Assembly: GCA_035545315.1 (NCBI GenBank)
Contig: DASZYQ010000022.1
Coordinates: 11,913 to 75,912, forward strand
DNA: 64,000 bases
Direction of reading: 5' to 3'
Source: Mucilaginibacter sp.
Lineage (GTDB): Bacteria; Bacteroidota; Bacteroidia; Sphingobacteriales; Sphingobacteriaceae
The position numbers and the translations under genes are program-made. Shown here piece after piece: positions 32,011 through 47,746 of the stretch. Below the pieces are notes generated by a model. It worked only from the letters and a program-made list of their open reading frames with translations. It had not been told where the DNA came from and did no database searches. Every line of letters begins with the position of its first letter. Positions within the stretch are counted from its first letter, which is position 1.

Positions 32011-35000
32011 CTACCTTCCAATGATCACCTTCTTTGTATAGACTTTGCTGTTCAGTAATAATTTCAGCACGTAGGTTCCGGGCGGAAGGCTGCTTGTATC
32101 GATTGTCGTGCTGAAATTTCCCTGCGATAAGGACTGTGTAACAGAGTAGCTGTTCTCACCCTTCGCGTTGATCATCGACAGTACCATATCTTCAGCCTGT
32201 TTTGCCGCGAAAACAATGTTGAGCTGGCCATTTGCCGGCACGGGGAATACCGCCAGGCCGATATCGTTATTTGAGCCGGTGTTGGGGGATACATAAACGA
32301 AATTATCCGATTGCGCCACGCAGCCGTTATCAAGCGTAACAAAAACCTTGTAATTACCGCTTTGCATGGGCGAATAAGATTGTCCGGATGCATCGTTAAT
32401 TTGCTTGCCATCCAGGTACCATTGATTGTTCGATGAAAAATTCGAGTTCAAAACAGTACCGTTTTGAGTTATAGACGGTGTTATCACCTGTACCGCCTGT
32501 TTTTCTGCCGATGCGCAGCCGGGGCTGCGTAGTTTCATGTCGTAGAAAAAGTAATAGAAGTTCTTATAATAAGCCGTGTCCGTTGCGGATGTAGCCGTAT
32601 TGCCGGTAATGCTGAACACATCGCCTATTTTGAAAGGATAGCCTGTTACGCCTCCGTTGCTGCGGTAAATAGTGGCATTGGCATCGTACGTGGCGGTGAT
32701 AGAATAACTTCCGGCCGCGGGCAGCAATAAGTTGAGATTGTACACCTGGCCCTGGTCGGTCGGATCGTTGGTTTGAACGCCGGGTTGCGGATTGCTGCGC
32801 GTTGCCACCGCATCGATAGTCGCCGATGAAACGACCTGCCCGTTCGGGTCGGCTACGCTGAAAGTGATCTGCCCCGGGTAGCCGATATATAAGCGGGCGC
32901 TTTCAATAATAACAGGAATGCGGGTAAATACGTTTACCGATGGCGTAAACTGGTTATACCCGCCTGCTGGAAAAGCGTTTTTCGACACCGGGCCGACCGA
33001 CCCGCTGAAGTCATTCAGGCCGGCATAATACGTGTTGTTAACAGGCGCCTGCGTTGTTACCGCGGGCGAACCATAGGCGAACGGAATAGTATCCGCAGCG
33101 TTATGATACCACAATACCTCGCCGTCACCCGTACCTTCCAGTAACCAGGAATTGCTGCTGTTGCAGTAATTTGCGGTAAGCGCGCCGGCAACGGTCGGGG
33201 CCGGGGTGGTAACCGTGTCCGTTATGGAATTATTTGCGGTTACGGGGTCGTTCGCAAGATTGGTTGCGGCTTTAATAATATAAACTGAACCTGGGCTGAT
33301 GTTAAAAGTATTGGTAAAAGTAAAATTATCGGTTGCCGCCGGTGCGAGCGTTCCGGTGTAGGTTTGGTTAAATGTAGTTACTATGTTATTCGGGGCTGTT
33401 ATAGCTACAACCACGGGAATATTGGTCAAGGCCGTACTTCCGTAATTTTTCAGGGTTACCGTTACCGGCACCGCACCGGAACATTGACCGTTTGAGGTCG
33501 GGCTTACCACGGCGACAGCCCCCGCATCCACACTCGCCTGTACGAATTGCACACGGTAATCCTGCGTCTCCCCTTTGGAATAACTGCCGCAGGGTTTAAT
33601 GGTCGAGGTATCGCTGGTTTCGGCGAGCACAACGCGCATCAGGCTATAGTTCCCCGCGATTACCGAGCCGGGAACAGTAATGTTAGTTGTATAGGTGCCG
33701 GTTCCGTTAATCACACCGGTCGTCGCCACAAGTTCCGCCGGTTCAAATACGCCGTCTCCGTTCCAATCGATAAACACCTTCGCCGCCTTATTGAAATTAG
33801 CGCCGCAGGTACCCAATGTTAAACTCAGCGGGTATGTTTTGTACTGCTCAAGCTGTACCGTCAGGTTGGTATAATCGGAATAAGTTGTACAGCCTGCGGG
33901 AGGCGTATTGCTGATATTCGACAGGGTGACATTATTGATCCTCGAATCTGCGCCCGATAGCGGGGCCGACGCGCAAAAAGCCGAACCCCCAATTCCCGTT
34001 ACGACAATCGAATAGGCCTGCGTGCCTGACTGGAGTGTGCCTTTGTGCGACACGGTAATGGTATAGGCCCTGCCCGGCACAGCGCCGGCGACATAAACCT
34101 GTTCGACATTATCGCGGATATTATCGCCGGTGGTTGCCGGCGCCGCCGGATTGTTATAGTCCAGCACCCAGGGAAAATAGGTGTTTGCGCCATCGCTGAT
34201 ACGAATATCCAGGTCGTTTACCAATTTCGGCGTACGGCTGTTGACCGTGCCGTCGGGCGTCTGCGATCCCGGTGGATCGGTCCATGATATGGTCGCCATC
34301 AGCGGGCCGTTGCCCGACGCTACCACGTTAATGGTTTGCGTTTGCCCCTGCGACAGTGTATTTTCCTTCACCATGCTTTTGGTACCGTTATCCGTTAGCA
34401 CCTGGGCGGCCTTTTTTGTATCCAAAAGTCCCCATCCGTAGATATAATCGGGCCCGGGGTTCCCCGCATCAAAAGCGGTATGACAGGCCAGCCCCTTCAG
34501 CGTAGCGGCGCGCATAAAACTGCCCGCATTTTTTTTCGCATAATATTCCTGCAAAAGATAAAGCGAGCCCGTAATGTTAGGTGTTGCCTGTGACGTGCCC
34601 GAAAAGGTAATATAGTTTGCAGGCCCGGCGCTGCCGGTCGACAGCACATTAAGACCATTGCCCACCACGTCGGGTTTGATACGCCCGTCATCGGTGGGGC
34701 CTTCACTGCTAAAATAGGTTATGCTGATGCCGGAAGAACTGACCGGGCCGTTGGGCAACGGGTTTACAGCGCCCACCGTCAGGATATTTTTAGCGTTGCC
34801 GGTACTGCTAATACAATCGTAGCTATTATTGCTGCTGATGCCGGCCGGCCGCGGGCCTTTGTCGACAATAGTCGGGTCTGTTGCGCTTTTGTATCCGTAA
34901 TAATCTTGCCCAACAGGCGGGCCGGTGTCAGCCCGCGCATTACCGGCAGCCTCCAGGATAAGATAATATGGGGCGCTATAGGCTATCTGGTCCCATTGCT

Positions 35001-35745
35001 GTGTGCGCTGGCCGTAAAAGCCGAAGGTATAGTCAACCGTGTCGCCAGGCAGCCCGTACCACTCCCAGCGGCTTTGCCCATCATTATAGTTCCAGCCTGC
35101 CTGGTCGCCGTAGGAGTGATTGGACAGAAGCAGATTTGGCGCTTCGCCGCTCATTTCAGCTACGTCGTTGTTAAAGTCATACGACAAAAGCGTCGACGCG
35201 TTGAAGGCCATACCTTTTGCCGGCGGATAGACACCTTTGGCCAGCATAGTGCCGCTAACGTGCGTGGCATGATCGATGATGGTGGAAGAATCCTTCCAGG
35301 TAATGGTTTTGCCCGCAAACTCCTGGTGCTGTTTGTAAACGGACCCGCCGTCCCATATTGCCAATTTGTTGTTCAAAAACGAGCTTGAACCCGACAGGTT
35401 CAAACCAAGCGCACCGCCGGGCTGAACCGCGTTGGTGCTGGTAGTAGCGGCCGAAATAACGTTATCGTCGGTAGCGAGAAATACCGGGAAACCGCGTTGG
35501 TTTACTCCCTGCAAAACCACGATACCGCCTTTTTTGGTTTTCCTGCTAATCATCCAGTTATGGATCCGGGCCAGGTTAAGCGCCCTTTGATGAGCAGCGG
35601 TATAGGACGCGGCGGCTTTTGCCGAAAGATCGTTAAGTTTTCGCCTGTTAGTATCGGTAACCAGTTTTTTCTGCTGGCCGAAAGCCCGGCCGCAGATGGC
35701 CGACAGGGATAACAATATGACCAGCGATGGTAAATATTTCCTCAT
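32011..35745 (-). CDS. S8 subtilisin-like serine peptidase with GEVED and Ig-like domains and a T9SS C-terminal sorting domain
   Basis: Triad IWDGG / DHATHVSGT / SGTSQATP; GPTDDGRIKPD; KGETQDY (GEVED-like); C-terminal AVFPVPA...YTKKVII. Confidence 0.92.
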   Translation of the reverse strand: MRKYLPSLVILLSLSAICGRAFGQQKKLVTDTNRRKLNDLSAKAAASYTAAHQRALNLARIHNWMISRKTKKGGIVVLQGVNQRGFPVFLATDDNVISAATTSTNAVQPGGALGLNLSGSSSFLNNKLAIWDGGSVYKQHQEFAGKTITWKDSSTIIDHATHVSGTMLAKGVYPPAKGMAFNASTLLSYDFNNDVAEMSGEAPNLLLSNHSYGDQAGWNYNDGQSRWEWYGLPGDTVDYTFGFYGQRTQQWDQIAYSAPYYLILEAAGNARADTGPPVGQDYYGYKSATDPTIVDKGPRPAGISSNNSYDCISSTGNAKNILTVGAVNPLPNGPVSSSGISITYFSSEGPTDDGRIKPDVVGNGLNVLSTGSAGPANYITFSGTSQATPNITGSLYLLQEYYAKKNAGSFMRAATLKGLACHTAFDAGNPGPDYIYGWGLLDTKKAAQVLTDNGTKSMVKENTLSQGQTQTINVVASGNGPLMATISWTDPPGSQTPDGTVNSRTPKLVNDLDIRISDGANTYFPWVLDYNNPAAPATTGDNIRDNVEQVYVAGAVPGRAYTITVSHKGTLQSGTQAYSIVVTGIGGSAFCASAPLSGADSRINNVTLSNISNTPPAGCTTYSDYTNLTVQLEQYKTYPLSLTLGTCGANFNKAAKVFIDWNGDGVFEPAELVATTGVINGTGTYTTNITVPGSVIAGNYSLMRVVLAETSDTSTIKPCGSYSKGETQDYRVQFVQASVDAGAVAVVSPTSNGQCSGAVPVTVTLKNYGSTALTNIPVVVAITAPNNIVTTFNQTYTGTLAPAATDNFTFTNTFNISPGSVYIIKAATNLANDPVTANNSITDTVTTPAPTVAGALTANYCNSSNSWLLEGTGDGEVLWYHNAADTIPFAYGSPAVTTQAPVNNTYYAGLNDFSGSVGPVSKNAFPAGGYNQFTPSVNVFTRIPVIIESARLYIGYPGQITFSVADPNGQVVSSATIDAVATRSNPQPGVQTNDPTDQGQVYNLNLLLPAAGSYSITATYDANATIYRSNGGVTGYPFKIGDVFSITGNTATSATDTAYYKNFYYFFYDMKLRSPGCASAEKQAVQVITPSITQNGTVLNSNFSSNNQWYLDGKQINDASGQSYSPMQSGNYKVFVTLDNGCVAQSDNFVYVSPNTGSNNDIGLAVFPVPANGQLNIVFAAKQAEDMVLSMINAKGENSYSVTQSLSQGNFSTTIDTSSLPPGTYVLKLLLNSKVYTKKVIIGR

Positions 35746-35968
35746 TTAAGCTGCCGGATAAAACAAATTGTAACCCTTCTTCGTAAAATACGTTTGCTTG
35801 TACTCATTTTCCATAGATAATGTTTCTATTTCCGTTTGCCGGAATAGTTTTTGCACGACAAGATAAGGAACGCGGGCTAAAGTATTAAATAAAAGAGTCC
35901 GGCCGGAATAGCTAATTAATCAGTAATGCGAGGAAAAAACTTTGTATTAATATTACGGCAGGAATAAT

Positions 35969-35976
35969 TAAATTTG
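35969..35976 (+). promoter_or_regulatory. -7 promoter element for the small peptide gene
   Basis: TAAATTTG, 28 nt upstream of ATG 36005. Confidence 0.55.
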
Positions 35977-36004
35977 TAACATTGATTACTCAATACTCTG
36001 AAAA

Positions 36005-36214
36005 ATGAAACTGAAGGCCGGACTTAGTGTGTTAGTGTTGATCCTGATAAGTGTCACTACGGCTCATGCCCAGGGTTTGCCCTGCGGCGGTGACGACCCG
36101 GACGCTACTTGCCCGCTTGATACCTGGGTGATCGTGCTGGTTATCGCTGCTTCTGTTTTCGCAGCTTACCGCTTATTTCGCAAACAAAAAGCTGCAGGTT
36201 CTCCCGGCAATTAA
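36005..36214 (+). CDS. Small exported peptide with PID-CTERM-like (PLD) sorting signal
   Basis: Signal peptide to AHA|Q; core QGLPCGGDDPDATC; PLD + TM helix + RKQK. Confidence 0.8.
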   Translation: MKLKAGLSVLVLILISVTTAHAQGLPCGGDDPDATCPLDTWVIVLVIAASVFAAYRLFRKQKAAGSPGN

Positions 36215-36567
36215 TCGTATATTCCTTTCTGTAAATCTCCCTTATCACGGGCATCTGTGTGTCATCAAAGGGTATGTAAGCCATATCTGCTAATGGGCAA
36301 ATCATCGCTTATAAAAAGCTATAACGCAACCTCTCCGCGCTGTTTTCGAAGAAAAAAAATCACGAGATAGCCTTCGGGCTGTTAATATCGCCGGCTTGTC
36401 TTTTTTATATCACACTTATTATCAAGTTATTATATCGTCTATTTAACTTAAAAGAAATTTCTTTACCCAAATGGAACATTTTACGTAAATTTATTCGTAT
36501 AAAACCGTCGTAGATTATGTGCGAATGATTAGCGGTAAGCGAGTTTTTGCAGGTACACCGATATACG

Positions 36568-39516
36568 ATGAAGAGAGTTTTACTTTTTTTACTGTTGTCC
36601 CTATTTGTATTGTCAACCCAACGGGCGCGGGCGGGCACTACCTATACCTGGGCGGGCGGCAGCAGCGGCGCCTGGACAACTTCGGCAAACTGGTCGCCGA
36701 GCACGGGGTACCCCGGCAGTTCAGGCAGCTCCGATATCGCCGTAATTAACACCAGCAACGCTACGATAACTTTGAGTAGCACTATTACCATCGCACAGCT
36801 TAAAACAACCAATTACGGCGTAAGCGGGATAACGATTAGCGTAAACAGCGGCACAACGCTCAATATTGGTTCGGGCGTCAGCACATCGCAGCCTTCCAGC
36901 GCTGCGGTTAGTTTTACATTCTCCGGATCGGGTGCTTTCGCAATCAGCGGAACGGTAAGCGCGGGCTATAACTCGTCCTTTGCTATTTCGTCGGGCACCA
37001 CCGTCTACTTTAATTCGAATGCAGTGATGGACGAGAGCACCAGCAATCCCCATGGCAATTTGACCAACGCCGGTACGCTCAATATCATGTCGGGATGTAC
37101 CTTTAAGTTCGGCGATTTCTCGTCGCTAACCAATTCGGGCACCATGCGCTCCTATGGTTCGACATTTACTTTCAGTGGCAGCGGAACTCCTGCCAATTTG
37201 ATGACCAATACAGGCACCTATACCGACCATGGTTCCACATTTACCATCAGCGGTCAAAACAGCGCCTTTCAAAACTCAAGTTCATCGTCGTTAGCCTACC
37301 TGCATGGCACTAAGATCAATTTTACGAGCACCAATAATAACATGAGCCTGACCAACGCGGGTATGGTCATCGCTGATTCCTCGGCTTCTATAAGCCTGGG
37401 TACCTATAACTGCCCGCTGACTAATACGGGCACATTTTATGCGGGCGGATCGAATAATCCTTGTACGATCAACCTAACCGGCCAGGGTTCCAATATCAAC
37501 AATTCGGGCACCTTTTATGTTGGTTCAACCTCAGGCATTACCATATCAGGGTACCAGGCGTATTTGAATAATGCCAGCACAGGCTTTTTTATATTTCAGT
37601 CGGACAGCTACGGTTCAGGCTACCTGGGGGCCGTTCCATCAACATCGGTGGGACTAATTACCGGCACCTACCAGGTACAACGATACATCACCGGCGGCAG
37701 CCCGGCCTATCGCGGCTACCGGATGTTTTCGTCACCCGTGTACACGAGCACGGTAAGCAGCAATAAGATTTACAGCTTGAATTATGTAAAAGCATCGTCG
37801 TTGGTTACCGGCAGCGGCGGCACTTCCGGAGGTTTTGACAAAGCCGGCAATCCAAGTCTGTACCTCTACCGCGAAAATATCGCCTATTCAAACGCCACAT
37901 TCATATCGGGCAATTTCAGGGGCATAGCCAATATCGCGAGTGCGCCAAGCTATACTATGGATACGGATGGCGGGACATATGATATCCCCGTAGGCAACGG
38001 CTTCCTGTTCTGGTTCAGGGGCGACCGGACTACCAACCTTGCCAATAAATATACACCCGGAACATCTGCAGAAAGCGTAACCATGACCGCTACAGGCAGC
38101 CTTAACCAGGGTTCATATACGGTACACGACTGGTATACGCCCTCATCGTCTAATCTCGGCTATACAACTACCTCAGGCAATACGACCGTGCGGGGCGACA
38201 ACCTGGTCGGCAATCCTTACCCAAGTTCCATCGACTGGGAAACATTTCAAACAACCACTTCGACATCAGGCATATACGGCGTAAACGTAGGTAATACGAT
38301 CTATGTGCTTAACCCGGTGAACCAAAACTACGGCGCCTATATCAAAGGCGGCGGCGGGGTTGGGACCAATAATGCAACGAACGTTATTGCAAGCGGCCAG
38401 GGCTTTTTTGTGGTGGCTACCGGAACAGGCGCACAACTGATCTTTAACGAGACGGCCAAAACTGCCACGCAAAATACCGGTGTGCAACTTTTTATGGGCA
38501 CGCCTGCGGGCAATTTAGCAAGCAATGCGTTCATCAGGCTGAAGATGAGCCTGGATACCGTCAATACAGACGAGTTGCTGCTGCGGTTTGATAACAGCGC
38601 ATCGGTGATTTATTCAGGAGCTTACGACGGTGAATATAAGCAGGGATTTGGCAAGGTAAGCCTGGCCAGCCTATCGGCCGACAGCGTGGCCCTGGCGATT
38701 AACACAGTGCCATATCCTAAAACAAGTGAAGCTATAAAACTATCGGTATTGGCAAGAACCGATGGGATATACCAGCTAAGCCTGGTACAGGTAAACCAAG
38801 TGCCGCAGTTGTACGACATCTGGCTGAAAGACAATTACACAAAAGATTCGGTTGACCTGCGGCCCAATCCGGTTTACAGCTTTAACATTTACACTGCCGA
38901 TCCGGCAAGTTACGGGTCTGGCCGCTTTAGCCTTGTTATACGCCAAAACCCGGCTTATGCTTACCAACTGATCAATTTTAACGCTGCGAAAGTACAGGAT
39001 CAGCCGCAGGTGCTGGTATCCTGGCAAACCATGAACGAGGCGAATTATACCAACTTCGCGGTTGAGCGCAGTACGGACAGTGGGAAAACATTCAACATCA
39101 TCGGCAACATAGCTGCAACAGGCGCCGGGAACTATAGTATAACCGACAAGTTTCCCGTTATGGGAGCGAACCTGTACAGGTTGAAACAACAGGATATAAA
39201 CAACACTATCACCTATTCGGACGTGGTGAAAGTGATGTATCCCAACCCCGCAGGTTTGACCGCGGGCAATTTCTCCGTGTATCCTAATCCTGCCGGAAAT
39301 ACCCTTAACCTGGTCATCAACACCAGCACTGCAAGTACGGGAAGTTATAATATCAGTATCGTCAATGCACTTGGGCTTACAGTAAAACAAGCAACCGTTT
39401 CTCAGCCTGCATGGCAGGGCGCAGTAAACGATCTGCCCCCGGGAACCTATACGGTTCGGATACTGGACAACAAGAACAACATTGAATTAGGCAGCAGTCG
39501 CTTTGTTAAACTATAA
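36568..39516 (+). CDS. T9SS type A cargo surface protein 1 (beta-helix-like N-terminus)
   Basis: Signal peptide from ATG 36568; WAGGSSGAWTTSANW cap; S/T/G/N-rich repeats; shared YRGYR-SSPV / NLVGNPYPSSIDW core; YPNP CTD. Confidence 0.85.
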   Translation: MKRVLLFLLLSLFVLSTQRARAGTTYTWAGGSSGAWTTSANWSPSTGYPGSSGSSDIAVINTSNATITLSSTITIAQLKTTNYGVSGITISVNSGTTLNIGSGVSTSQPSSAAVSFTFSGSGAFAISGTVSAGYNSSFAISSGTTVYFNSNAVMDESTSNPHGNLTNAGTLNIMSGCTFKFGDFSSLTNSGTMRSYGSTFTFSGSGTPANLMTNTGTYTDHGSTFTISGQNSAFQNSSSSSLAYLHGTKINFTSTNNNMSLTNAGMVIADSSASISLGTYNCPLTNTGTFYAGGSNNPCTINLTGQGSNINNSGTFYVGSTSGITISGYQAYLNNASTGFFIFQSDSYGSGYLGAVPSTSVGLITGTYQVQRYITGGSPAYRGYRMFSSPVYTSTVSSNKIYSLNYVKASSLVTGSGGTSGGFDKAGNPSLYLYRENIAYSNATFISGNFRGIANIASAPSYTMDTDGGTYDIPVGNGFLFWFRGDRTTNLANKYTPGTSAESVTMTATGSLNQGSYTVHDWYTPSSSNLGYTTTSGNTTVRGDNLVGNPYPSSIDWETFQTTTSTSGIYGVNVGNTIYVLNPVNQNYGAYIKGGGGVGTNNATNVIASGQGFFVVATGTGAQLIFNETAKTATQNTGVQLFMGTPAGNLASNAFIRLKMSLDTVNTDELLLRFDNSASVIYSGAYDGEYKQGFGKVSLASLSADSVALAINTVPYPKTSEAIKLSVLARTDGIYQLSLVQVNQVPQLYDIWLKDNYTKDSVDLRPNPVYSFNIYTADPASYGSGRFSLVIRQNPAYAYQLINFNAAKVQDQPQVLVSWQTMNEANYTNFAVERSTDSGKTFNIIGNIAATGAGNYSITDKFPVMGANLYRLKQQDINNTITYSDVVKVMYPNPAGLTAGNFSVYPNPAGNTLNLVINTSTASTGSYNISIVNALGLTVKQATVSQPAWQGAVNDLPPGTYTVRILDNKNNIELGSSRFVKL

Positions 39517-39967
39517 GCGATTCTTTCTGCGGCCCGTAATCAGTGCAATCCAACACTTCCGGTTTGATACCTAATATATCTCCTTCAAAGCTTAGGACGG
39601 CCAAGCCAGGGCAGGTCGGCGATGCCAGGTTTACTAAATTCTTACCTCGCTTTAACCGCGCATTCCCTTAAGACCGTTTTGCGCCGGAAACAAGAAAACG
39701 CCTACTTGGCTATAGCTTTGGGCTAGTTTTTTCTCAACATATTAACATTAAACACGTTTTGCGATTCTGAAAACTGGCCGGCAAGTTTTTTCGTAGCGGG
39801 AAAAAAAACCAAAACAAATTAACTATTATTATAATATTAACTATTATTACCCGCCCATAATAATCAACTTAACATATACGAAATAAAATACATAAATACA
39901 GTTAGTTAAGTTTCCATAAAAGACTATTACATATAACCTAAAGCAAAAAATAATCGTACAAAAAGGA

Positions 39968-39975
39968 TATATTTG
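39968..39975 (+). promoter_or_regulatory. -7 promoter element for cargo gene 2
   Basis: TATATTTG, 26 nt upstream of the TTG start. Confidence 0.5.
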
Positions 39976-40001
39976 GGTCCAAATACTCAAATCGGGTTAT
40001 A

Positions 40002-43000
40002 TTGAAAAGACTTTTTTTGTATTTGGGGTTCATCAACCTGCTCTTATCGGCCCCCCGTTTTACATTCGGGGCGGTGCCTAATATCAGGTATACTCCATCA
40101 ACCAACACCTTAACACTTGGTACGGCATTTTCTATCACGCCTTCCAATACCGGCGGCTCTGTTACAACCGGCAGTTATGCGCCTATTTATTCGTTTGCGA
40201 CAGTGTCAAGTCCGTGGGATGTAACGGTGGATGCTTCAGGGAATGTGTACACTGTCAGCGAAAGCGGCAATACCCTGATCGAAATATCGCCGACAGGCAC
40301 CAAAACGACTTTATATTCAGGCTTGAGTACGCCCACCGGCGTTGCAATCGATAGCAGGGGTAATATCTATGTATCCAATTTCGGCTCGGGCCAGGTGTTG
40401 AAATTTGACTCGTCGGGCAACTTGTTGGCCACTATCAACGGTTTTAACCAGCCTTACGGCATTTCCTTTGATTCGTCCAACAACGCTTATGTTGCTGATG
40501 CCGGCGATAATGTGGTATACGAGATTACCGCGGGCACTACAACGGTCAGTACTTATGCAAGCGGATTGACGAGTCCGTATGGGACAGCCGTGGATGCATC
40601 GGGAAACCTTTACGTGTCCCAATATACTGCAAACAACCTTGTTAAGATCACGCCTGCGGGTGTAAAAACAACTTTTGCAGCCGGTTTTAATGCGCCGCGC
40701 CAACTCGGCATGGACGCATCAGGAAATATTTATGTAGCGGATTATGGCAACAATGCTATAAAGAAAGTGACATCTGCGGGAGTTGTATCAACGATAACCC
40801 AGGCAAGCGGGCTCAACGCGCCACGCTCTGTACAGCCCGACGCGTCCGGGAGCTTATATATCGCCGATTATGGCAGCGGCGCCATCAAAAAGGTAGCCGT
40901 CACAGGCTGGACGATTAGCGCGACGCTGCCCGACGGTCTGACATTTAATACATCAACAGGAAAGATCTCAGGTACGCCAACGGTTACATTCACTACGACT
41001 ACTTATACGGTTATTGCATACAATACCAGCGGGAAAGCGTCAACAACAATAACCTTATCGTGTTCGCAATCCACAATGGACTGGAAGGGTACAACATCGA
41101 GCGCATGGGCAACTACCACTAACTGGAGCCCGAACGGCACGCCCAACCAGTATACTGCTGTACGTATCGGATCAAACGTAACCTTTACCAATCAGCCTAC
41201 CCTTAGCTCGAACACAACGGTAAGCTCGATAACGTTCGGTACTATCAAAACGGCTACTTTAACAATAGCATCGGGAGCTACATTAACGATAAATGACAAT
41301 CTAACCATTAACTCGACGGGTACGCCAACTATAACCGGCAGCGGAACAGCGGCAGTTGCAATGGCGCCCGGCTCGATCATTAACATAACAAACGCCAGCG
41401 CTAAACTGACTTTAACATCGCCGCTTTCATTTACGCTTCAATCAGACGCTACGGGCGATGCATCGATAGGCCAGCTTGCCAGCACGACCGCTATAACGGG
41501 TAGCGCCGCCAGCTCGATCAATGTCGAACGCTACCTTAGCGGCGGCAGCCTGAGCTACAGGGGATACCGGCTTTTATCGTCGCCGGTATATGTCGGGCAG
41601 GATACCCACAGTAATAACGTGGAAGGACTGAATTACCTGATCAGCTCCATGTACCTTACGGCAACCACTACTACAGGAGGATTTGACAATACGGCTGCCG
41701 CTAACCCGAGCCTGTACCTTTTCAGGGAAAACCTGGTCAGCCCGACAAGCACTTTTACCGGCGGCAATTACCGTAGCGTCAACGCAATTAATAATACGCC
41801 AAACTACAATTACACACTTGATGGCGATGGCACCGGAAACTATGTCCCGGTAGGAAACGGCTATCTATGCTTTGTCAGAGGCAACAGGGCTTCGACTTCC
41901 TTCGCTAGTGAGACTTCAGTAGCCTACGTACCACAGGCTGTTACACTTAGCGCCAGCGGGACGTTAAATATGGGCCAGGTAACCGTTAAGGACTGGTTTA
42001 CACCAACGTCATCAAATTTAAGCTACACAGCCGCTTCGCCTTATGCCGGTTTCAACCTGGTTGGAAACCCTTATGCAAGCTCGATCGACTGGGATAATTT
42101 TCAAACAAGCTCATCCACGACAGGCATTTACGGCAGCAATGTCAGCAGCACGATATACGAGCTGGACCCGATTACAAAAAACTATGGGTCTTACATGTCG
42201 GGCTCAGGCGGCATCGGAAGCGCTACCTTTGTAAGCAATATAATAGCAAGCGGGCAGGGTTTTTTCGTATTGGCAACATCCGGATCGGGACAGTTAGTTT
42301 TCAACGAGTCAGCCAAGACAACTTCACAGAACACGCAGGGTTCGACGTTGCTGATGTCCAAACAGCCGGTAGCGGCAGCAAACATGCAATACCTGCGCTT
42401 ACAAATCGGCGAAGGCAGTGTAAGGGATCAAACCCTGATAAGGTTTAACAGCCAGGCCAGCACCGATTTCAGCTACGCGATCGATGCACCGTATAAAACC
42501 GGTTATGGAGCCGTAAGCCTGGCAACGCGATCAAGCGATAACGTCGATCTGTCGATCAATACCGTGCCACTGCCGAAACCGAAAAGCGAATCTATCAGGC
42601 TGAATGTAAATGCCAGTAAAGACGGTATTTATAGTTTAGCAATTATCGATATCGTGTCGGTTCCGCAGCTCTTCGACATATGGCTGATGGACGCCTATAC
42701 AAAAGACTCGGTCGACATGCGCCATAACAAAAGCTACAGCTTTAATATTTATAAAAGCGATAGCGCAAGCTTTGGGCCAAAGCGTTTTACGCTCGTGATA
42801 CGCCAAAACCCGGCCTATGCCTACAGGCTGCTCAGCTTTACAGGCCAAAAAGTGCAGAATGAGCAGCAAACCGAGCTTTTGTGGAAGACCGAAAACGAGG
42901 GCAATTACACCTATTTCACCGTTCAGCGAAGCATCGACAACGGGAAGACTTATGACGACCTTGGCTCGGCTAATGCTGCCGGCAGCGGACAATACAGCCT

Positions 43001-43385
43001 TATGGATAAAAATCCTTTTGCCACAGGACCAAATTATTACCGCTTAAAGCAAATTGATTTCAACGGCGACATTACTTATTCTAACATTGTTGTTGTGGGG
43101 TTTGCCAACCAGGCTAACGGCATATATACAGATAATCTGAGCATATACCCGAACCCGGTAAACAGCATGATCAATTTGTCCATAAAACAGCAATCGTCTG
43201 ATAATACTACAAATTACGACATTAAGATCACAAACAGTTCGGGGCTTGTCGTAAAGGAGGTAACATCTTCACAACCTTCATGGCAGGGCAGCATTAATAA
43301 CCTCGGGCCCGGAACCTACATCGTTACCGTTGTCGACAATAAAACGAAAGGCGCGGTAGGCCAAACTAAGTTTATCAAGCTATAG
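40002..43385 (+). CDS. T9SS type A cargo surface protein 2 (NHL beta-propeller plus putative Ig domain)
   Basis: TTG start; six NHL-like repeats (PxGxAxDxxGNxYV); LPDGLTFNTSTGKISGTPT Ig motif; shared core; YPNP CTD. Confidence 0.87.
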   Translation: MKRLFLYLGFINLLLSAPRFTFGAVPNIRYTPSTNTLTLGTAFSITPSNTGGSVTTGSYAPIYSFATVSSPWDVTVDASGNVYTVSESGNTLIEISPTGTKTTLYSGLSTPTGVAIDSRGNIYVSNFGSGQVLKFDSSGNLLATINGFNQPYGISFDSSNNAYVADAGDNVVYEITAGTTTVSTYASGLTSPYGTAVDASGNLYVSQYTANNLVKITPAGVKTTFAAGFNAPRQLGMDASGNIYVADYGNNAIKKVTSAGVVSTITQASGLNAPRSVQPDASGSLYIADYGSGAIKKVAVTGWTISATLPDGLTFNTSTGKISGTPTVTFTTTTYTVIAYNTSGKASTTITLSCSQSTMDWKGTTSSAWATTTNWSPNGTPNQYTAVRIGSNVTFTNQPTLSSNTTVSSITFGTIKTATLTIASGATLTINDNLTINSTGTPTITGSGTAAVAMAPGSIINITNASAKLTLTSPLSFTLQSDATGDASIGQLASTTAITGSAASSINVERYLSGGSLSYRGYRLLSSPVYVGQDTHSNNVEGLNYLISSMYLTATTTTGGFDNTAAANPSLYLFRENLVSPTSTFTGGNYRSVNAINNTPNYNYTLDGDGTGNYVPVGNGYLCFVRGNRASTSFASETSVAYVPQAVTLSASGTLNMGQVTVKDWFTPTSSNLSYTAASPYAGFNLVGNPYASSIDWDNFQTSSSTTGIYGSNVSSTIYELDPITKNYGSYMSGSGGIGSATFVSNIIASGQGFFVLATSGSGQLVFNESAKTTSQNTQGSTLLMSKQPVAAANMQYLRLQIGEGSVRDQTLIRFNSQASTDFSYAIDAPYKTGYGAVSLATRSSDNVDLSINTVPLPKPKSESIRLNVNASKDGIYSLAIIDIVSVPQLFDIWLMDAYTKDSVDMRHNKSYSFNIYKSDSASFGPKRFTLVIRQNPAYAYRLLSFTGQKVQNEQQTELLWKTENEGNYTYFTVQRSIDNGKTYDDLGSANAAGSGQYSLMDKNPFATGPNYYRLKQIDFNGDITYSNIVVVGFANQANGIYTDNLSIYPNPVNSMINLSIKQQSSDNTTNYDIKITNSSGLVVKEVTSSQPSWQGSINNLGPGTYIVTVVDNKTKGAVGQTKFIKL

Positions 43386-43588
43386 TTTCCGGTCAAAACA
43401 TCGTTACTCCTAACCTAATTTTCAAAAAGCGTTTTAAGACCGTTCAGAGGCAGCTTATTAACTTAAGATTAAAAAAATCGTAACCATAACGCAACATACT
43501 ATAAATCAGCAACTAAACACGCGTTAGCAGCTAATAATTTTTCGAATTATTTAAACCTAATGACGCTTCACCACGTAAAAAGAACCGT

Positions 43589-46500
43589 GTGCTGCTGATA
43601 TTAGTTTTGAAAAAGGTATTAAATAAAGTCATGTTCGCCGCCCTGCTACTGACCTTTGTCGCAGGGAAAACCTTTGCTGCAACCTACGACTGGGTAGGCA
43701 CCAGCGCGACAAGCGGTGTTTACAACTGGAACAACAGGCTGAACTGGCAGGTAGGCGGCGTAACCGCGACGACTATTCCAGGTGCGGCTGATATAGTACG
43801 GATAGCGGTCAATGCTTATGCGAACGACCCGACTATTACGGATGCGGAATCCTGCGCGTCGATCATCTTCGGCGTTTACGACAATTTTACGCTGACTGTG
43901 AACGGCACCCTGACGGTGAGCGGCGATATTACGCAGAATAACGACCCCAACTTTTACCAGTACACTACTTTAGCCGGCACAGGCACCATTAGCTGCAAGA
44001 ACTTTTACCTTGGCGACAACACCATGCCCAGTACCGGTATTGGGGTAGTTAACAACGTAAGCTGCCAGGTAACTCAAATGACCATCAATGGCAACCTGGT
44101 TTTAAACGCGGTTGGCAACAGCACCTCCGATGGCATTGTGTATCCGTATTTCTCGCTGGACGCGAATAAGCTGACTTTATACGGCCAAATAAAAACAACC
44201 ACATACAGTAATCCGCTTTCGGAAGGCGTTGGCGACCCTAACTACCCAGGCATCGGCCTGTTCCAAATGGATAGCGGCATTGCAGCTACAACGCTTGAAT
44301 TACTGAACAGCGCCCCTATTCTGACTCCCGTCACTACCGGCTTTACCGTCGACTTTACCAACAACGGAGCCGGGGCCGGAACCGTGATCTATGATGCAAC
44401 TTCGGGAACGCAAACGGTTTATACAACCGGTACCAGCGGCCTTGGCATTAACAATTATAATTACGATTACCTCACTTTTGCCGGGGCAAGCACAAAAACC
44501 CTGGTAGGCGGCGCCTTAACGGTGGGCTCCGACTGGACCACCGGCGGAACGGGTACCGTCGACCTTGCGACGAACAATCCGACCATAACCGTGTCGGACA
44601 ACTGGGTGAACTCGACGAATGTTACGCAGGGATCAGGCAGCATAACGCTGACGAACATCCTGCAAAACAACAGCAATACCATAACTTTAGGATCGGGCGG
44701 CCTAACCGTGGGAAATATCCTTCAGATAAATTTCGGGGCCGTTAATGCCGGTTCAGGTACGGTAACCGTAAACGGCATCTTTCAGAACAACAGCGGAACA
44801 TTTAAGTGCGGATCGGGCAATGTCATCCTTAAAAGCACCTATCAAAACAGCGGTACTTTTACCGCCGGAACAGGGACGGTATATTTTTCCGGCGCATCGC
44901 AAATTCTGCAGGACAACAGCGCGGCCGGCACGGTATTTAATAAAGTTACTTTTAATGGCAGCGGTACGGCGACCATGAGTGCAGGAGTCGGAAATTTCGC
45001 GGTATCGAGCAGCGGCGTGCTTACCGTTACCAGCCCGGCCGCGTTATCGGCCGGAAGCGCTTCTGCCGCTTATCTTACCTTAAAATCAGACGCTACAGGG
45101 TCGGCCACCATCGCGGCCATGTCGGGCACGGCCAGTATCAGCGGATTTGTAAATGTTCAGCGATACATAACCGGCGGCAGCCTCACCTATCGGGGTTATC
45201 GCCTGCTTTCCTCGCCCGTAAATGCGGGAACTGTAGGTACAAACAAGGTTTTCAGTCTTAATTATCTTAAAAGCTCGTGCTATCTTACCGGATCGACAGG
45301 AACAACAGGGGGCTTCGACAAGACGGGCAACCCTACGATTTATTTATATCGCGAGAATGTGACCCCGACCAACAGCAATTTTATTGCCGGCAATTTCAGG
45401 GGCATTAACAATATCACGGCCTCACCGGGTTATCAACTGGACGGCGAGATCGGAACTTTCAATATTCCTGTTGGAGACGGCTATTTATTTTATTTCAGAG
45501 GTAACCGGAGTACAAGCCTGGCCAGTAAGACAGTCTCGCCTTATGCTACGCCCGAAAACACCACTTTAGTCACAACGGGCAACCTGAACCAGGGACAGGT
45601 GACCGTTAAGGACTGGTATACGCCGACCTCCGCGAACCTCGGATACACTGTTTCGGCCGGGAATACAGCCGTAAGGGGCTTTAACCTGGCAGGTAATCCC
45701 TATGCCAGCTCCATTAACTGGGATACTTACAATACGACCTCTACAACTACAGGTATCTATGCTTCAAGCGTCGGTCCAACCATTTACGTGCTTGACCCCG
45801 TCACCAGGAACTACGGTGCCTACACCAAAGGAAGCGGCGGCATCGGAACACACAACGCAACCAATGTATTAGTTAGCGGACAGGGCTTTTTTGTGCTGGC
45901 CAGCAGCGCCGGGGCCAAACTGATCATCAATGAATCGGCAAAGGTAAATACGCAACTTACAGGAGCCAGCCTGCTGATGGGCAAGCCGCCGGTGGATGTT
46001 GGCAATATGCAGTATGTGAGGCTTGATATGATCAAAGACTCGGTCAATTACGATGACATACTTATCCGTTTCGACGGGAGCAGCACGGCTGCGTACTCGC
46101 CCGATGAAGATGCGGAATATAAACAGGGTAACGGACAGGAAAACCTGGCGAGTTTATCGAGCGACAACGTGCCGCTGGCCATAAACGTGCAGCCATTACC
46201 CAAAAATGGTACCGTTGTACCGTTGTCAGTATCGGCTGTGAGCGATGGAAATTACCAGATGAACCTAAAAAGTATTACCGGGTTGCCCATGCTTTTCGAT
46301 ATAACACTTGTCGATACTTACACCAACACTTCAACCGACTTACGCGAAAATCCGATCTATAACTTCAGCATTGCAAAAAGCGACACCAATAGCTTTGGCA
46401 GCAAACGATTTAAGCTGATCTTCGGCCAGAATAAGTCTTATGCATACCGCCTGCTCAACTTTACAGCCGAAAAGCTGGAGAATGCTGCCGGCAAACAAGT

Positions 46501-47002
46501 GGAGCTGGTTTGGAAAACGGAAAACGAGGCCAATTATACCACGTTTACGGTAGAGCGCAGTACCGACAACGGCGCCACTTTCCAGGTGGTAGGCAGCAGG
46601 CTGTCGAGTGACCTGGGCGTTTACAGTCTTGTCGACCATAACCCGTCCGATGGCCTGAATCTTTACCGCCTGAAACAGCAGAATATTAATGACAGCGTTA
46701 CCTATTCAAAACTGGTACAGATAGCGTATGGCCCTTTATCCAACACACTAACCGGTAATATAAATGTATACCCCAACCCTGTAAACAGCATGCTTAACCT
46801 GTCGGTAACGTCGAACCCCAATGCCGGCAGCTATAATATCAGGATAACTAACAGTTCCGGCCTGGTTGTAAAGGAAGCCAATGTATCTCAACCTACCTGG
46901 CAGGGCAACGTAAGTAACTTGCTTTCGGGCAGCTACTTCATCCAGGTTGTAAACAATAAAGACCAGACCCTGGTAGGAAAAGCCAAATTCGTAAAAATGT
47001 AA
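43589..47002 (+). CDS. T9SS type A cargo surface protein 3 (passenger-like beta-helix N-terminus)
   Basis: GTG 43589 or ATG 43631 start; YDWVG...NWNNRLNW cap; shared core; YPNP CTD ending KAKFVKM. Confidence 0.85.
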   Translation: MLLILVLKKVLNKVMFAALLLTFVAGKTFAATYDWVGTSATSGVYNWNNRLNWQVGGVTATTIPGAADIVRIAVNAYANDPTITDAESCASIIFGVYDNFTLTVNGTLTVSGDITQNNDPNFYQYTTLAGTGTISCKNFYLGDNTMPSTGIGVVNNVSCQVTQMTINGNLVLNAVGNSTSDGIVYPYFSLDANKLTLYGQIKTTTYSNPLSEGVGDPNYPGIGLFQMDSGIAATTLELLNSAPILTPVTTGFTVDFTNNGAGAGTVIYDATSGTQTVYTTGTSGLGINNYNYDYLTFAGASTKTLVGGALTVGSDWTTGGTGTVDLATNNPTITVSDNWVNSTNVTQGSGSITLTNILQNNSNTITLGSGGLTVGNILQINFGAVNAGSGTVTVNGIFQNNSGTFKCGSGNVILKSTYQNSGTFTAGTGTVYFSGASQILQDNSAAGTVFNKVTFNGSGTATMSAGVGNFAVSSSGVLTVTSPAALSAGSASAAYLTLKSDATGSATIAAMSGTASISGFVNVQRYITGGSLTYRGYRLLSSPVNAGTVGTNKVFSLNYLKSSCYLTGSTGTTGGFDKTGNPTIYLYRENVTPTNSNFIAGNFRGINNITASPGYQLDGEIGTFNIPVGDGYLFYFRGNRSTSLASKTVSPYATPENTTLVTTGNLNQGQVTVKDWYTPTSANLGYTVSAGNTAVRGFNLAGNPYASSINWDTYNTTSTTTGIYASSVGPTIYVLDPVTRNYGAYTKGSGGIGTHNATNVLVSGQGFFVLASSAGAKLIINESAKVNTQLTGASLLMGKPPVDVGNMQYVRLDMIKDSVNYDDILIRFDGSSTAAYSPDEDAEYKQGNGQENLASLSSDNVPLAINVQPLPKNGTVVPLSVSAVSDGNYQMNLKSITGLPMLFDITLVDTYTNTSTDLRENPIYNFSIAKSDTNSFGSKRFKLIFGQNKSYAYRLLNFTAEKLENAAGKQVELVWKTENEANYTTFTVERSTDNGATFQVVGSRLSSDLGVYSLVDHNPSDGLNLYRLKQQNINDSVTYSKLVQIAYGPLSNTLTGNINVYPNPVNSMLNLSVTSNPNAGSYNIRITNSSGLVVKEANVSQPTWQGNVSNLLSGSYFIQVVNNKDQTLVGKAKFVKM

Positions 47003-47064: not shown

Positions 47065-47682
47065 TCAGGATCTCCTCATCTGCCCTACATTAAGCTGGTC
47101 GATAATACCGTCAACAACTTTGGGCAGGTCCTCAATGTTTTTCTGCGGGTTCTTATGTACTTCGCCTACGCCGAAACCACGCCATACTACACGCTTGGTA
47201 CGCGTATCGATCAGGTCGATGATGATGGTACCTTCTTTATAATGTTCTTTGTCGACCGCAGTCATGCCGCCATAGTAGGTGCCGCCAAATGCATAATATG
47301 GATTGTACCATCCACCCCAGCCCCAGCCCCACCCTAAGCCAAAGCCCCAGCCGGGATAAAACCCGCTGCTGCCGTAATAAGTAGGGTAATAAACATCTTT
47401 GACACCGCGGCCCACGGTTGCTGTGTAAGTTACGAGCAGATCGGGATCCCCCTGGTCCATGCGCAAGCCTTTGGCTGTTAGCGAAGCAATAGCGGCGTCC
47501 TTAATCCTAAGGTCGGCCTGCGACGCCTGCCTGCTTTTACCGGCCGGAGGCAGCCACGCAAAAGAGCGATACCCGCTCATGTTGGTTTTGTTAAGCCCGG
47601 CGGTATAATAATTGTAACTGCTGCAGCCGGGTAGCGTTGCAGATATAGCACATGCAAGCGCCAAATATATTAATGTCTTCAT
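47065..47682 (-). CDS. DUF4136 lipoprotein
   Basis: Lipobox LPGC; YRSFAW, PDLLVTY, YKEGTIIIDLID...VVWRG. Confidence 0.88.
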   Translation of the reverse strand: MKTLIYLALACAISATLPGCSSYNYYTAGLNKTNMSGYRSFAWLPPAGKSRQASQADLRIKDAAIASLTAKGLRMDQGDPDLLVTYTATVGRGVKDVYYPTYYGSSGFYPGWGFGLGWGWGWGGWYNPYYAFGGTYYGGMTAVDKEHYKEGTIIIDLIDTRTKRVVWRGFGVGEVHKNPQKNIEDLPKVVDGIIDQLNVGQMRRS

Positions 47683-47746
47683 AGCTATTTTCCCCTTATA
47701 TCACTTAGACAGTTTTAGCGAATATGGTTTAATCAAAAATAATTTT

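Follow-up and report, generated by a model that had tools for sequence, protein, structure and literature searches.

The window, a 64,000-nucleotide stretch of the genome of a Mucilaginibacter sp., holds a gene for a very small protein (P0001, here called the mini) that is divergent from an S8 protease gene and lies upstream of three tandem genes for T9SS cargo (Table 1). This arrangement had been described in the original prediction, and the domain matches agree with it: all three cargo genes carry Por_Secre_tail, and cargo 1 consists, from about residue 340 to its end, of a common stalk followed by a type A CTD.

Table 1. Positions of the mini gene, its parts and its neighbours in the window.
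Feature	Position	Strand	Remarks
S8 subtilase with GEVED domain and T9SS CTD	32011..35745	-	Divergent neighbour
TAAATTTG, Bacteroidota-type -7 promoter motif (TAnnTTTG)	35969..35976	+	29 nt before the ATG
Mini-protein gene P0001, 69 aa	36005..36214, stop codon included	+	ORF translation
Sec/SPI signal peptide, aa 1-22, ending A-H-A	36005..36070	+	A22 in at least 90%; predicted cleavage
Acidic 14-residue core QGLPCGGDDPDATC, Cys pair C27/C36	36071..36112	+	Probable disulfide loop
Signature P37-L38-D39	36113..36121	+	Equivalent of P-I-D in PID-CTERM
T40-W41 and hydrophobic membrane span TWVIVLVIAASVFAAYRLF	36122..36178	+	Span residues W41-F58
RKQK basic cluster (aa 59-62), variable 7-residue tail, stop codon	36179..36214	+	Family consensus LYRKQK
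Cargo 1, T9SS, 982 aa from ATG	36568..39516	+	Alternative TTG start at 36547 possible
Cargo 2, T9SS: NHL propeller head, He_PIG Ig domain, stalk, CTD	40002..43385	+	
Cargo 3, T9SS: stalk family, CTD	43589..47002	+	
DUF4136 lipoprotein gene	47068..47700	-	Marks the mini's usual position

The mini reads MKLKAGLSVLVLILISVTTAHA-QGLPCGGDDPDATC-PLD-TWVIVLVIAASVFAAYRLF-RKQK-AAGSPGN, and every element of the anatomy first proposed for it (a signal peptide ending in AHA, a core with two Cys, PLD, a hydrophobic span and RKQK) is present in this translation. In close homologues Q23, C27, D31, C36, P37, L38, D39, W41, V42, L45 and L57 are invariant, and the run T40, W41, V42, I43, V44, L45 is nearly so; a wider set of 129 diverse sequences, each representing a single cluster at 50% identity, keeps P37 and D39 without exception and has A22, C27, C36, W41 and L57 in at least 90%. 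Because Q23 stands invariably and directly after the signal peptide, it fits the Bacteroidetes Q-rule, by which a Gln follows the signal peptide (PMC5837995, PMC10653852), and thereby a pyroglutamate N-terminus. The Cys pair co-varies, in keeping with a disulfide; the length of the Cys loop differs across the family, and the spacing between the Cys and PLD is not fixed, with CEVPLD, CPSPLD and CTTPLD forms all in existence.

Resemblances of P0001 to other small membrane proteins were set aside. Its likeness to TatA/TatE (14.5 bits, where the cut-off is 104) reflects helix composition only, its match to FeoB-associated PF12669 (23.8 bits against a gathering threshold of 27) is confined to the helix, with no feoB in the gene maps of the 65 mini loci, and its matches to Smim3 and DUF5336 are likewise below threshold and limited to the helix.

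Conservation, promoter and position of the mini gene

A word-indexed search recovered 85 homologues of 55-95 aa (E 1e-37 to 5e-9), whose organism-bearing source names are all Mucilaginibacter or Sphingobacteriales, and HMMER, run exhaustively over 1.84 billion representatives, recovered 258 clusters at E <=1e-3; the best 150 of these 258 clusters are all 54-113 aa long, and none of the 150 carries the mini as a tail on a larger protein. A family HMM finds matches in 114 of the 151 Mucilaginibacter genomes, and the median dN/dS is 0.17 (36 usable pairs), with a value of 0.12 between the window and its nearest fetched orthologue. The number of homologues, their presence across the genus and the low dN/dS place the mini far beyond chance: the 69-codon ORF is a genuine conserved gene under selection.

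In its own genome the tail HMM finds a single copy of the mini. Some other genomes carry two, either in tandem or separately behind two consecutive cargo genes (L017, 1113-1565; L044, 6021-6505; L042, L043, L065 and L098). One such tandem pair has overlapping stop and start codons, and the pair in L098 has a dN/dS of ~1.1, unlike the rest of the family.

The claim that the mini has its own promoter is supported by the presence of TAAATTTG ahead of it and by the position of this motif, since TAnnTTTG lies 26-36 nt upstream of the ATG in seven of seven loci of the window's clade, in which the flanking sequence differs. Over the window as a whole TAnnTTTG is not enriched (58 matches versus 50.9 expected), and no further plus-strand occurrence lies between TAAATTTG and cargo 1. 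With no second motif in that interval, TAAATTTG may drive transcription of the cargo genes together with the mini. No plus-strand terminator was found in the spacer between the mini and cargo 1 (36215-36567, 350 bp), which has counterparts of 367-489 bp elsewhere in the clade, and there is no Rfam match in 35600-36700.

Throughout most of the genus the mini is encoded between the last cargo gene and the DUF4136 gene. The window has just 65 bp between cargo 3 and the DUF4136 gene, and no remnant of a mini at this usual place; the DUF4136-NadE-GldB-like synteny to the right of the array is the same in the window as in the rest of the genus. The window's clade has the mini relocated to the front of the array, with a conserved promoter motif of its own.

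Two genes near the mini were considered as its partners and rejected: the S8 protease has a homologue in just 17 of the 65 loci and is a syntenic neighbour rather than a specific partner, and a membrane protein of ~375 aa is only occasional in the same 65 loci. Close relatives (L012-L014, L048, L050 and L059) have a multi-pass membrane protein of ~376 aa, with a weak MauE/DoxX-like match, between the S8 gene and the mini; it is absent from the corresponding interval of the window (35746-36004) and from the whole genome. In some relatives the mini is flanked by P0089/P0091, with a weak match to MauE, and by P0090; P0089 and P0090 have no significant likeness to each other, and P0089 is absent from the window's own genome.

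Relationship to the PID-CTERM family

The comparison of the mini with PID-CTERM-type proteins, made at the outset, stands as regards homology and tripartite design and fails as regards the curated HMM. The PID_CTERM model NF046080, which spans 25 positions and has a cut-off of 26 bits, does not match P0001 (hmmscan at E <=10 gave TatA-like noise only), and a six-frame search of the genome with this model at E <=1 did not find the window ORF; minis of the PIDGG type, used as positive controls, score 36-46 bits. Conversely, the broad profile of the mini family (A2) picked up small PIDGG proteins of the same plan in other Bacteroidota families, and its hhalign comparison with nine PIDGG-type minis gave 98.7% (E 2.3e-16, 66 columns), a score that the signal peptide and helix inflate and that was obtained with minis first picked up by A2 itself, four of the nine passing NF046080, one being a near-copy, from a second locus, of one of these four, and four having been accepted on the PIDGG motif alone. 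Intermediate forms exist as well: CPIDGG minis and a PLDGG mini from a sister genus score 37-38 bits on NF046080.

The C-terminal tail of P0001 has the tripartite design of exosortase signals and, together with the signal peptide, makes up nearly the whole protein; it comprises P37-L38-D39, the hydrophobic residues 41-58 and RKQK at 59-62. On the basis of these comparisons, we read P0001 as a member of a divergent CPLDTW/Cys-loop subfamily of the PID-CTERM minis. With the minis recognized by NF046080 this subfamily shares a signal peptide ending in A-Q, a short head rich in Pro, Asp and Gly, the motif P-[IL]-D, a helix and a Lys/Arg cluster, as well as a total length of 60-90 aa, a location directly behind T9SS cargo and a tie to a short (~190 aa) exosortase. 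It differs from them in having C-P-L-D-T-W-V and a helix rich in Val, Ile and Leu where they have P-I-D-G-G and a helix rich in Ala and Gly, and in its basic motif, LYRKQK. Furthermore, a Cys pair is nearly universal in the family of the window mini, whereas PIDGG minis are mostly without Cys.

The PID-CTERM family is listed in the database and unstudied, and a literature search returned nothing relevant naming XrtX, XrtY or PID-CTERM. No NCBIfam model in the release searched matches P0001; given this absence of an NCBIfam match and the single genomic copy of the tail, it does not qualify as a classical PEP-CTERM protein (TIGR02595) either. As the curated HMM misses the Mucilaginibacter form, at least 258 sequence clusters are left "hypothetical" or uncalled.

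Stalk-family cargo and the exosortase XrtY

The association of the mini with T9SS cargo turned out to be much stronger than was first noted. Among 70 mini genes from 65 loci fetched across the genus, 60 lie directly behind a gene of the stalk family that is on the same strand and carries a T9SS CTD, at a median gap that by our own ORF calls is 11 bp. Six lie ahead of a cargo gene, as in the window, and these belong to the six fetched relatives of its clade; one lies behind another mini, and three are otherwise placed, including a CPLDSW mini in G135 that is flanked by the GT2 gene and xrtY. All large neighbours have in common the ~650 C-terminal residues of cargo 1, which we term the stalk; it is free of Cys and has no Pfam domain besides the CTD, and it is preceded by N-terminal heads that vary (beta-helix-like, NHL propeller and others). 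Cargo in the operons of another Bacteroidota family, described below, is distantly related to the stalk (E 1e-14 to 1e-16), and PID minis in two further families likewise follow genes that end in a T9SS CTD. Stalk-family T9SS cargo is the tightest partner of the mini.

The window's own genome encodes 16 PF18962 proteins, of which 10 belong to the stalk family, and one mini. Stalk-family genes occur at 36568-47002 in the window and on contigs C1, C5, C8, C28, C30 and C51 of the same genome (G000), and the 120 stalk homologues listed bear generic labels such as "T9SS type A sorting domain" and "trimeric autotransporter adhesin".

A check for exosortase-family genes, which the original prediction had proposed, found one on another contig: XrtY (G000:C4:78947-79429) is the sole member of this family in the genome, the assembly of which is 100% complete in 60 contigs. 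It scores 225 bits on NF046083 (cut-off 160) and 74 bits on the XrtX model. Its motifs YTCLG, NIARF and DHHT supply Cys, Arg and His, and judged by eye these residues would correspond to the triad that has been inferred for the exosortase family (bioRxiv 10.1101/2023.06.07.544157). The xrtY locus is a polysaccharide cluster with genes for a GT2, a WcaF-type acetyltransferase, a methyltransferase and a Wzy-like protein; the last, ~3 kb from xrtY, matches the XrtY-associated Wzy-like protein (NF046084) above cut-off, at 750 bits, and the GT2 beside xrtY does not match the model of the XrtY-associated glycosyltransferase. The GT2 gene upstream of xrtY shares 17 bp with it (G000:C4:77447-84985), and in about half the genomes of the genus the pair is a single frame of ~475 aa, a GT2-XrtY fusion. 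One genome (G084) has two copies of XrtY, each broken by a TAA stop.

In 401 genomes sampled across the phylum, XrtY exceeds its cut-off in the window's family only, and a second Bacteroidota family has sub-threshold relatives that score 115-133 bits. In three loci of this second family a large secreted protein, a PID-CTERM mini and an exosortase are encoded in that order on one strand, and the exosortases of these operons score 115-126 bits on XrtY versus 50-59 on XrtX. An XrtY-like gene is present in seven of the 21 genomes searched in this family and in all six of those with a mini. In G267 a true XrtX gene lies 18 bp from a PID mini.

All three partners (mini, XrtY and stalk) are present in 107 of the 151 Mucilaginibacter genomes and none of them in 26; the remaining 18, with mixed content, are mostly incomplete assemblies. 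Considering the mini and XrtY only, 111 genomes have both, three the mini alone, nine XrtY alone and 28 neither, such that this short exosortase accompanies the mini in 111 of 114 cases. Raw Fisher tests of co-occurrence give p ~1e-19, a value that we set aside in view of how few independent events the tree holds: on a SucA tree of 61 genomes the absences gather in two clades, and the minimum numbers of changes are five for the mini, six for XrtY and four for the stalk. Independent contrasts between XrtY and the mini go the same way three times, the opposite way never and show no change twice (p ~0.25), and those between the stalk and the mini go the same way four times and the opposite way never (p 0.125). 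The marker tree contains only three to four independent co-occurrence events, and the raw two-by-two table overstates the link to XrtY, the signal of which is weak after phylogenetic correction.

The exceptions run in both directions. Two genomes (G073 and G161) have an intact mini and cargo and, as checked directly, no exosortase of any type, and in a third genome of their clade (G070, an 89%-complete assembly) the stalk cargo is kept and neither mini nor XrtY was detected; G133, G093 and four of four genomes of a sister genus have XrtY and lack both mini and stalk. These cases indicate that the mini's primary tie is to the cargo family, and that XrtY is a frequent, not an obligate, partner. 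A genome of that sister genus (G422; L037, 721-1167 and 1389-1781) encodes, side by side, a 148-aa and a 130-aa secreted protein, both rich in Cys, which end in ...CNAPLDDSISILFVASAAFTFVFLRKQQK and ...ECGLDGQTWLF...FRKNKK, that is, in tails of the PLD- or GLD-helix-RKQ type. NCBIfam sorting-domain models do not match this pair, which may represent larger XrtY substrates with a PLD-like tail.

Possible roles of the mini and comparison with known systems

We lean, with somewhat better than even confidence, towards the view that the mini is a stand-alone sorting tail that is processed by XrtY and serves the stalk-family T9SS proteins, a view drawn from gene order and homology. The mini would be exported by Sec and cut by SPI after AHA, yielding a type I membrane peptide of 47 residues whose N-terminal Gln, judging from its position and the Q-rule, is probably cyclised. 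Its acidic 14-residue head would be closed by a C27-C36 disulfide on the outer surface of the inner membrane. XrtY would then recognise P-L-D, the helix and the basic cluster and remove the anchor. By analogy with ArtA, which removes the helix and leaves a lipid attached (bioRxiv 10.1101/2023.06.07.544157), the head would most likely be transferred to another molecule rather than released. The product, finally, would serve the stalk-family surface proteins, for example in their attachment or display. Processing by XrtY is likely, in view of homology, co-occurrence and operon linkage in relatives; the link between the mini and the stalk cargo is itself established by gene order, the mini being, presumably, almost always co-transcribed with the cargo.

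In favour of the sorting-tail view are the homology to PID-CTERM, the presence of a single XrtY together with its Wzy-like protein in the genome, the exosortase operons of relatives and the G135 locus. Against it stand the failure of NF046080 to match, the XrtY-free clade of G073, G161 and G070, and the lineages that have XrtY only. Unlike sorting signals with many substrates, moreover, the tail occurs once in the window's own genome and has no larger carrier among the best 150 of the 258 clusters, and the TWVIVL face of the helix and the LYRKQK motif are conserved beyond what is usual in sorting-signal helices. Any anchoring role of the mini is speculation. A specific version, in which XrtY, with the glycosyltransferase fused or next to it and the Wzy-like polymerase, transfers the acidic, disulfide-looped head to a lipid- or glycan-linked carrier and the envelope polymer so tagged anchors or docks the stalk cargo, we regard as unlikely; if true, it would be a counterpart of Porphyromonas A-LPS and would explain why a substrate that is all tail is translationally coupled to cargo.

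Several features that weigh against a sorting tail would be accommodated if the mini were an unprocessed, 47-residue micro-protein of the inner membrane that acts, by way of its conserved helix and juxtamembrane motifs, as a dedicated partner of the stalk cargo or of T9SS (as an escort, gate or stoichiometric regulator), the exosortase link then being indirect or for turnover only, which we consider possible, if doubtful. Stalk and mini change together in four of four independent contrasts, and are thus tied more tightly than mini and XrtY; G133, G093 and the sister genus (g19) lack both and retain XrtY, just as the clade of G073, G161 and G070 keeps mini and/or cargo without any exosortase. 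Gaps of ~11 bp, of the kind seen in translational coupling, fit stoichiometric co-expression, and both the absence of fusions of the tail to other cargo (best 150 of 258 clusters) and the strong conservation of the TWVIVL face and LYRKQK point the same way. However, the mini is homologous to PID-CTERM minis that are encoded in exosortase operons, an invariant P and D mark its membrane boundary, as they typically do in motifs recognised by proteases, minis without XrtY are rare in the genus (3 of 114, one of them from an incomplete assembly), and in G135 the mini adjoins xrtY.

The conserved Cys pair, the small, acidic head and, in the window's clade, the promoter ahead of the cargo array would also suit a free peptide of 14-17 residues, with a pyroglutamate and cyclised by the disulfide, that is cut by XrtY or another protease and acts as a diffusible regulator of the cargo island. 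We judge this reading, which the original prediction had put forward, highly improbable: no receptor or two-component genes are linked to the mini in the 65 loci, the sequence of the head and the length of its loop vary widely, the PIDGG relatives often have no Cys, and a periplasmic peptide would need an exporter too. Most genomes, in addition, presumably co-transcribe the mini behind cargo, an atypical layout for an autoinducer. Least probable of all, in our estimate, is that C36, which is conserved in at least 90% beside the motif, marks a signal of the MYXO-, JDVT- or CGP-CTERM-like kind, with Cys lipidation and cleavage by a CPBP/Rce1-like intramembrane protease and no exosortase involved. 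Tripartite signals with a Cys are proposed substrates of myxosortase (bioRxiv 10.1101/2023.06.07.544157; PMC11980579). Yet in the mini family the distance from Cys to PLD varies, the two Cys co-vary in a manner that fits a disulfide, and the homologous PIDGG minis are mostly without Cys; the neighbours of the mini included no CPBP gene, and the NCBIfam models for MYXO-, JDVT- and CGP-CTERM do not match P0001.

To our knowledge, no substrate-product pair has been biochemically defined for any bacterial exosortase. If the mini is indeed a sorting tail processed by XrtY, a substrate of 47 residues and its single cognate enzyme would offer about the simplest handle on the product of an exosortase. 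That minis pair almost obligately with a single family of T9SS surface proteins in two families of the class, with scattered cases elsewhere in the phylum, suggests a link, so far undescribed, between two systems of envelope sorting, and the natural lineages that are without one of the three partners provide ready-made comparisons.

The new elements are a genus-wide CPLDTW/Cys-loop subfamily that is invisible to the HMM, its association with XrtY in place of XrtX, the relocated gene of the window's clade, which has a promoter of its own, and the lineages in nature in which the three partners come apart. PID-CTERM is accompanied by exosortase X (NF046081) and the XrtX-associated protein (NF046082), whereas the window's genome has an unlinked XrtY and, as its best match to NF046082, one of 16 bits. 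That genome carries both components of the XrtY system (NF046083 and NF046084), and elsewhere XrtY occurs without mini or stalk cargo. With PEP-CTERM/XrtA and PGF-CTERM/ArtA the system shares a tripartite C-terminal signal and a polytopic enzyme with Cys, Arg and His, and XrtY, like many exosortases, is encoded within an exopolysaccharide locus. PEP-CTERM and PGF-CTERM tails, however, occur on many and usually large proteins, whereas in the window the tail is the whole protein and is present in one copy; the mini is also, unlike those signals, tied to the cargo of another secretion system, T9SS, of which we know no component that resembles it. In Porphyromonas gingivalis the sortase PorU attaches T9SS cargo to anionic LPS, and what the PorU/A-LPS system has in common with the mini is that it anchors to the surface proteins with the type A CTD, the same CTD that the neighbours of the mini bear.
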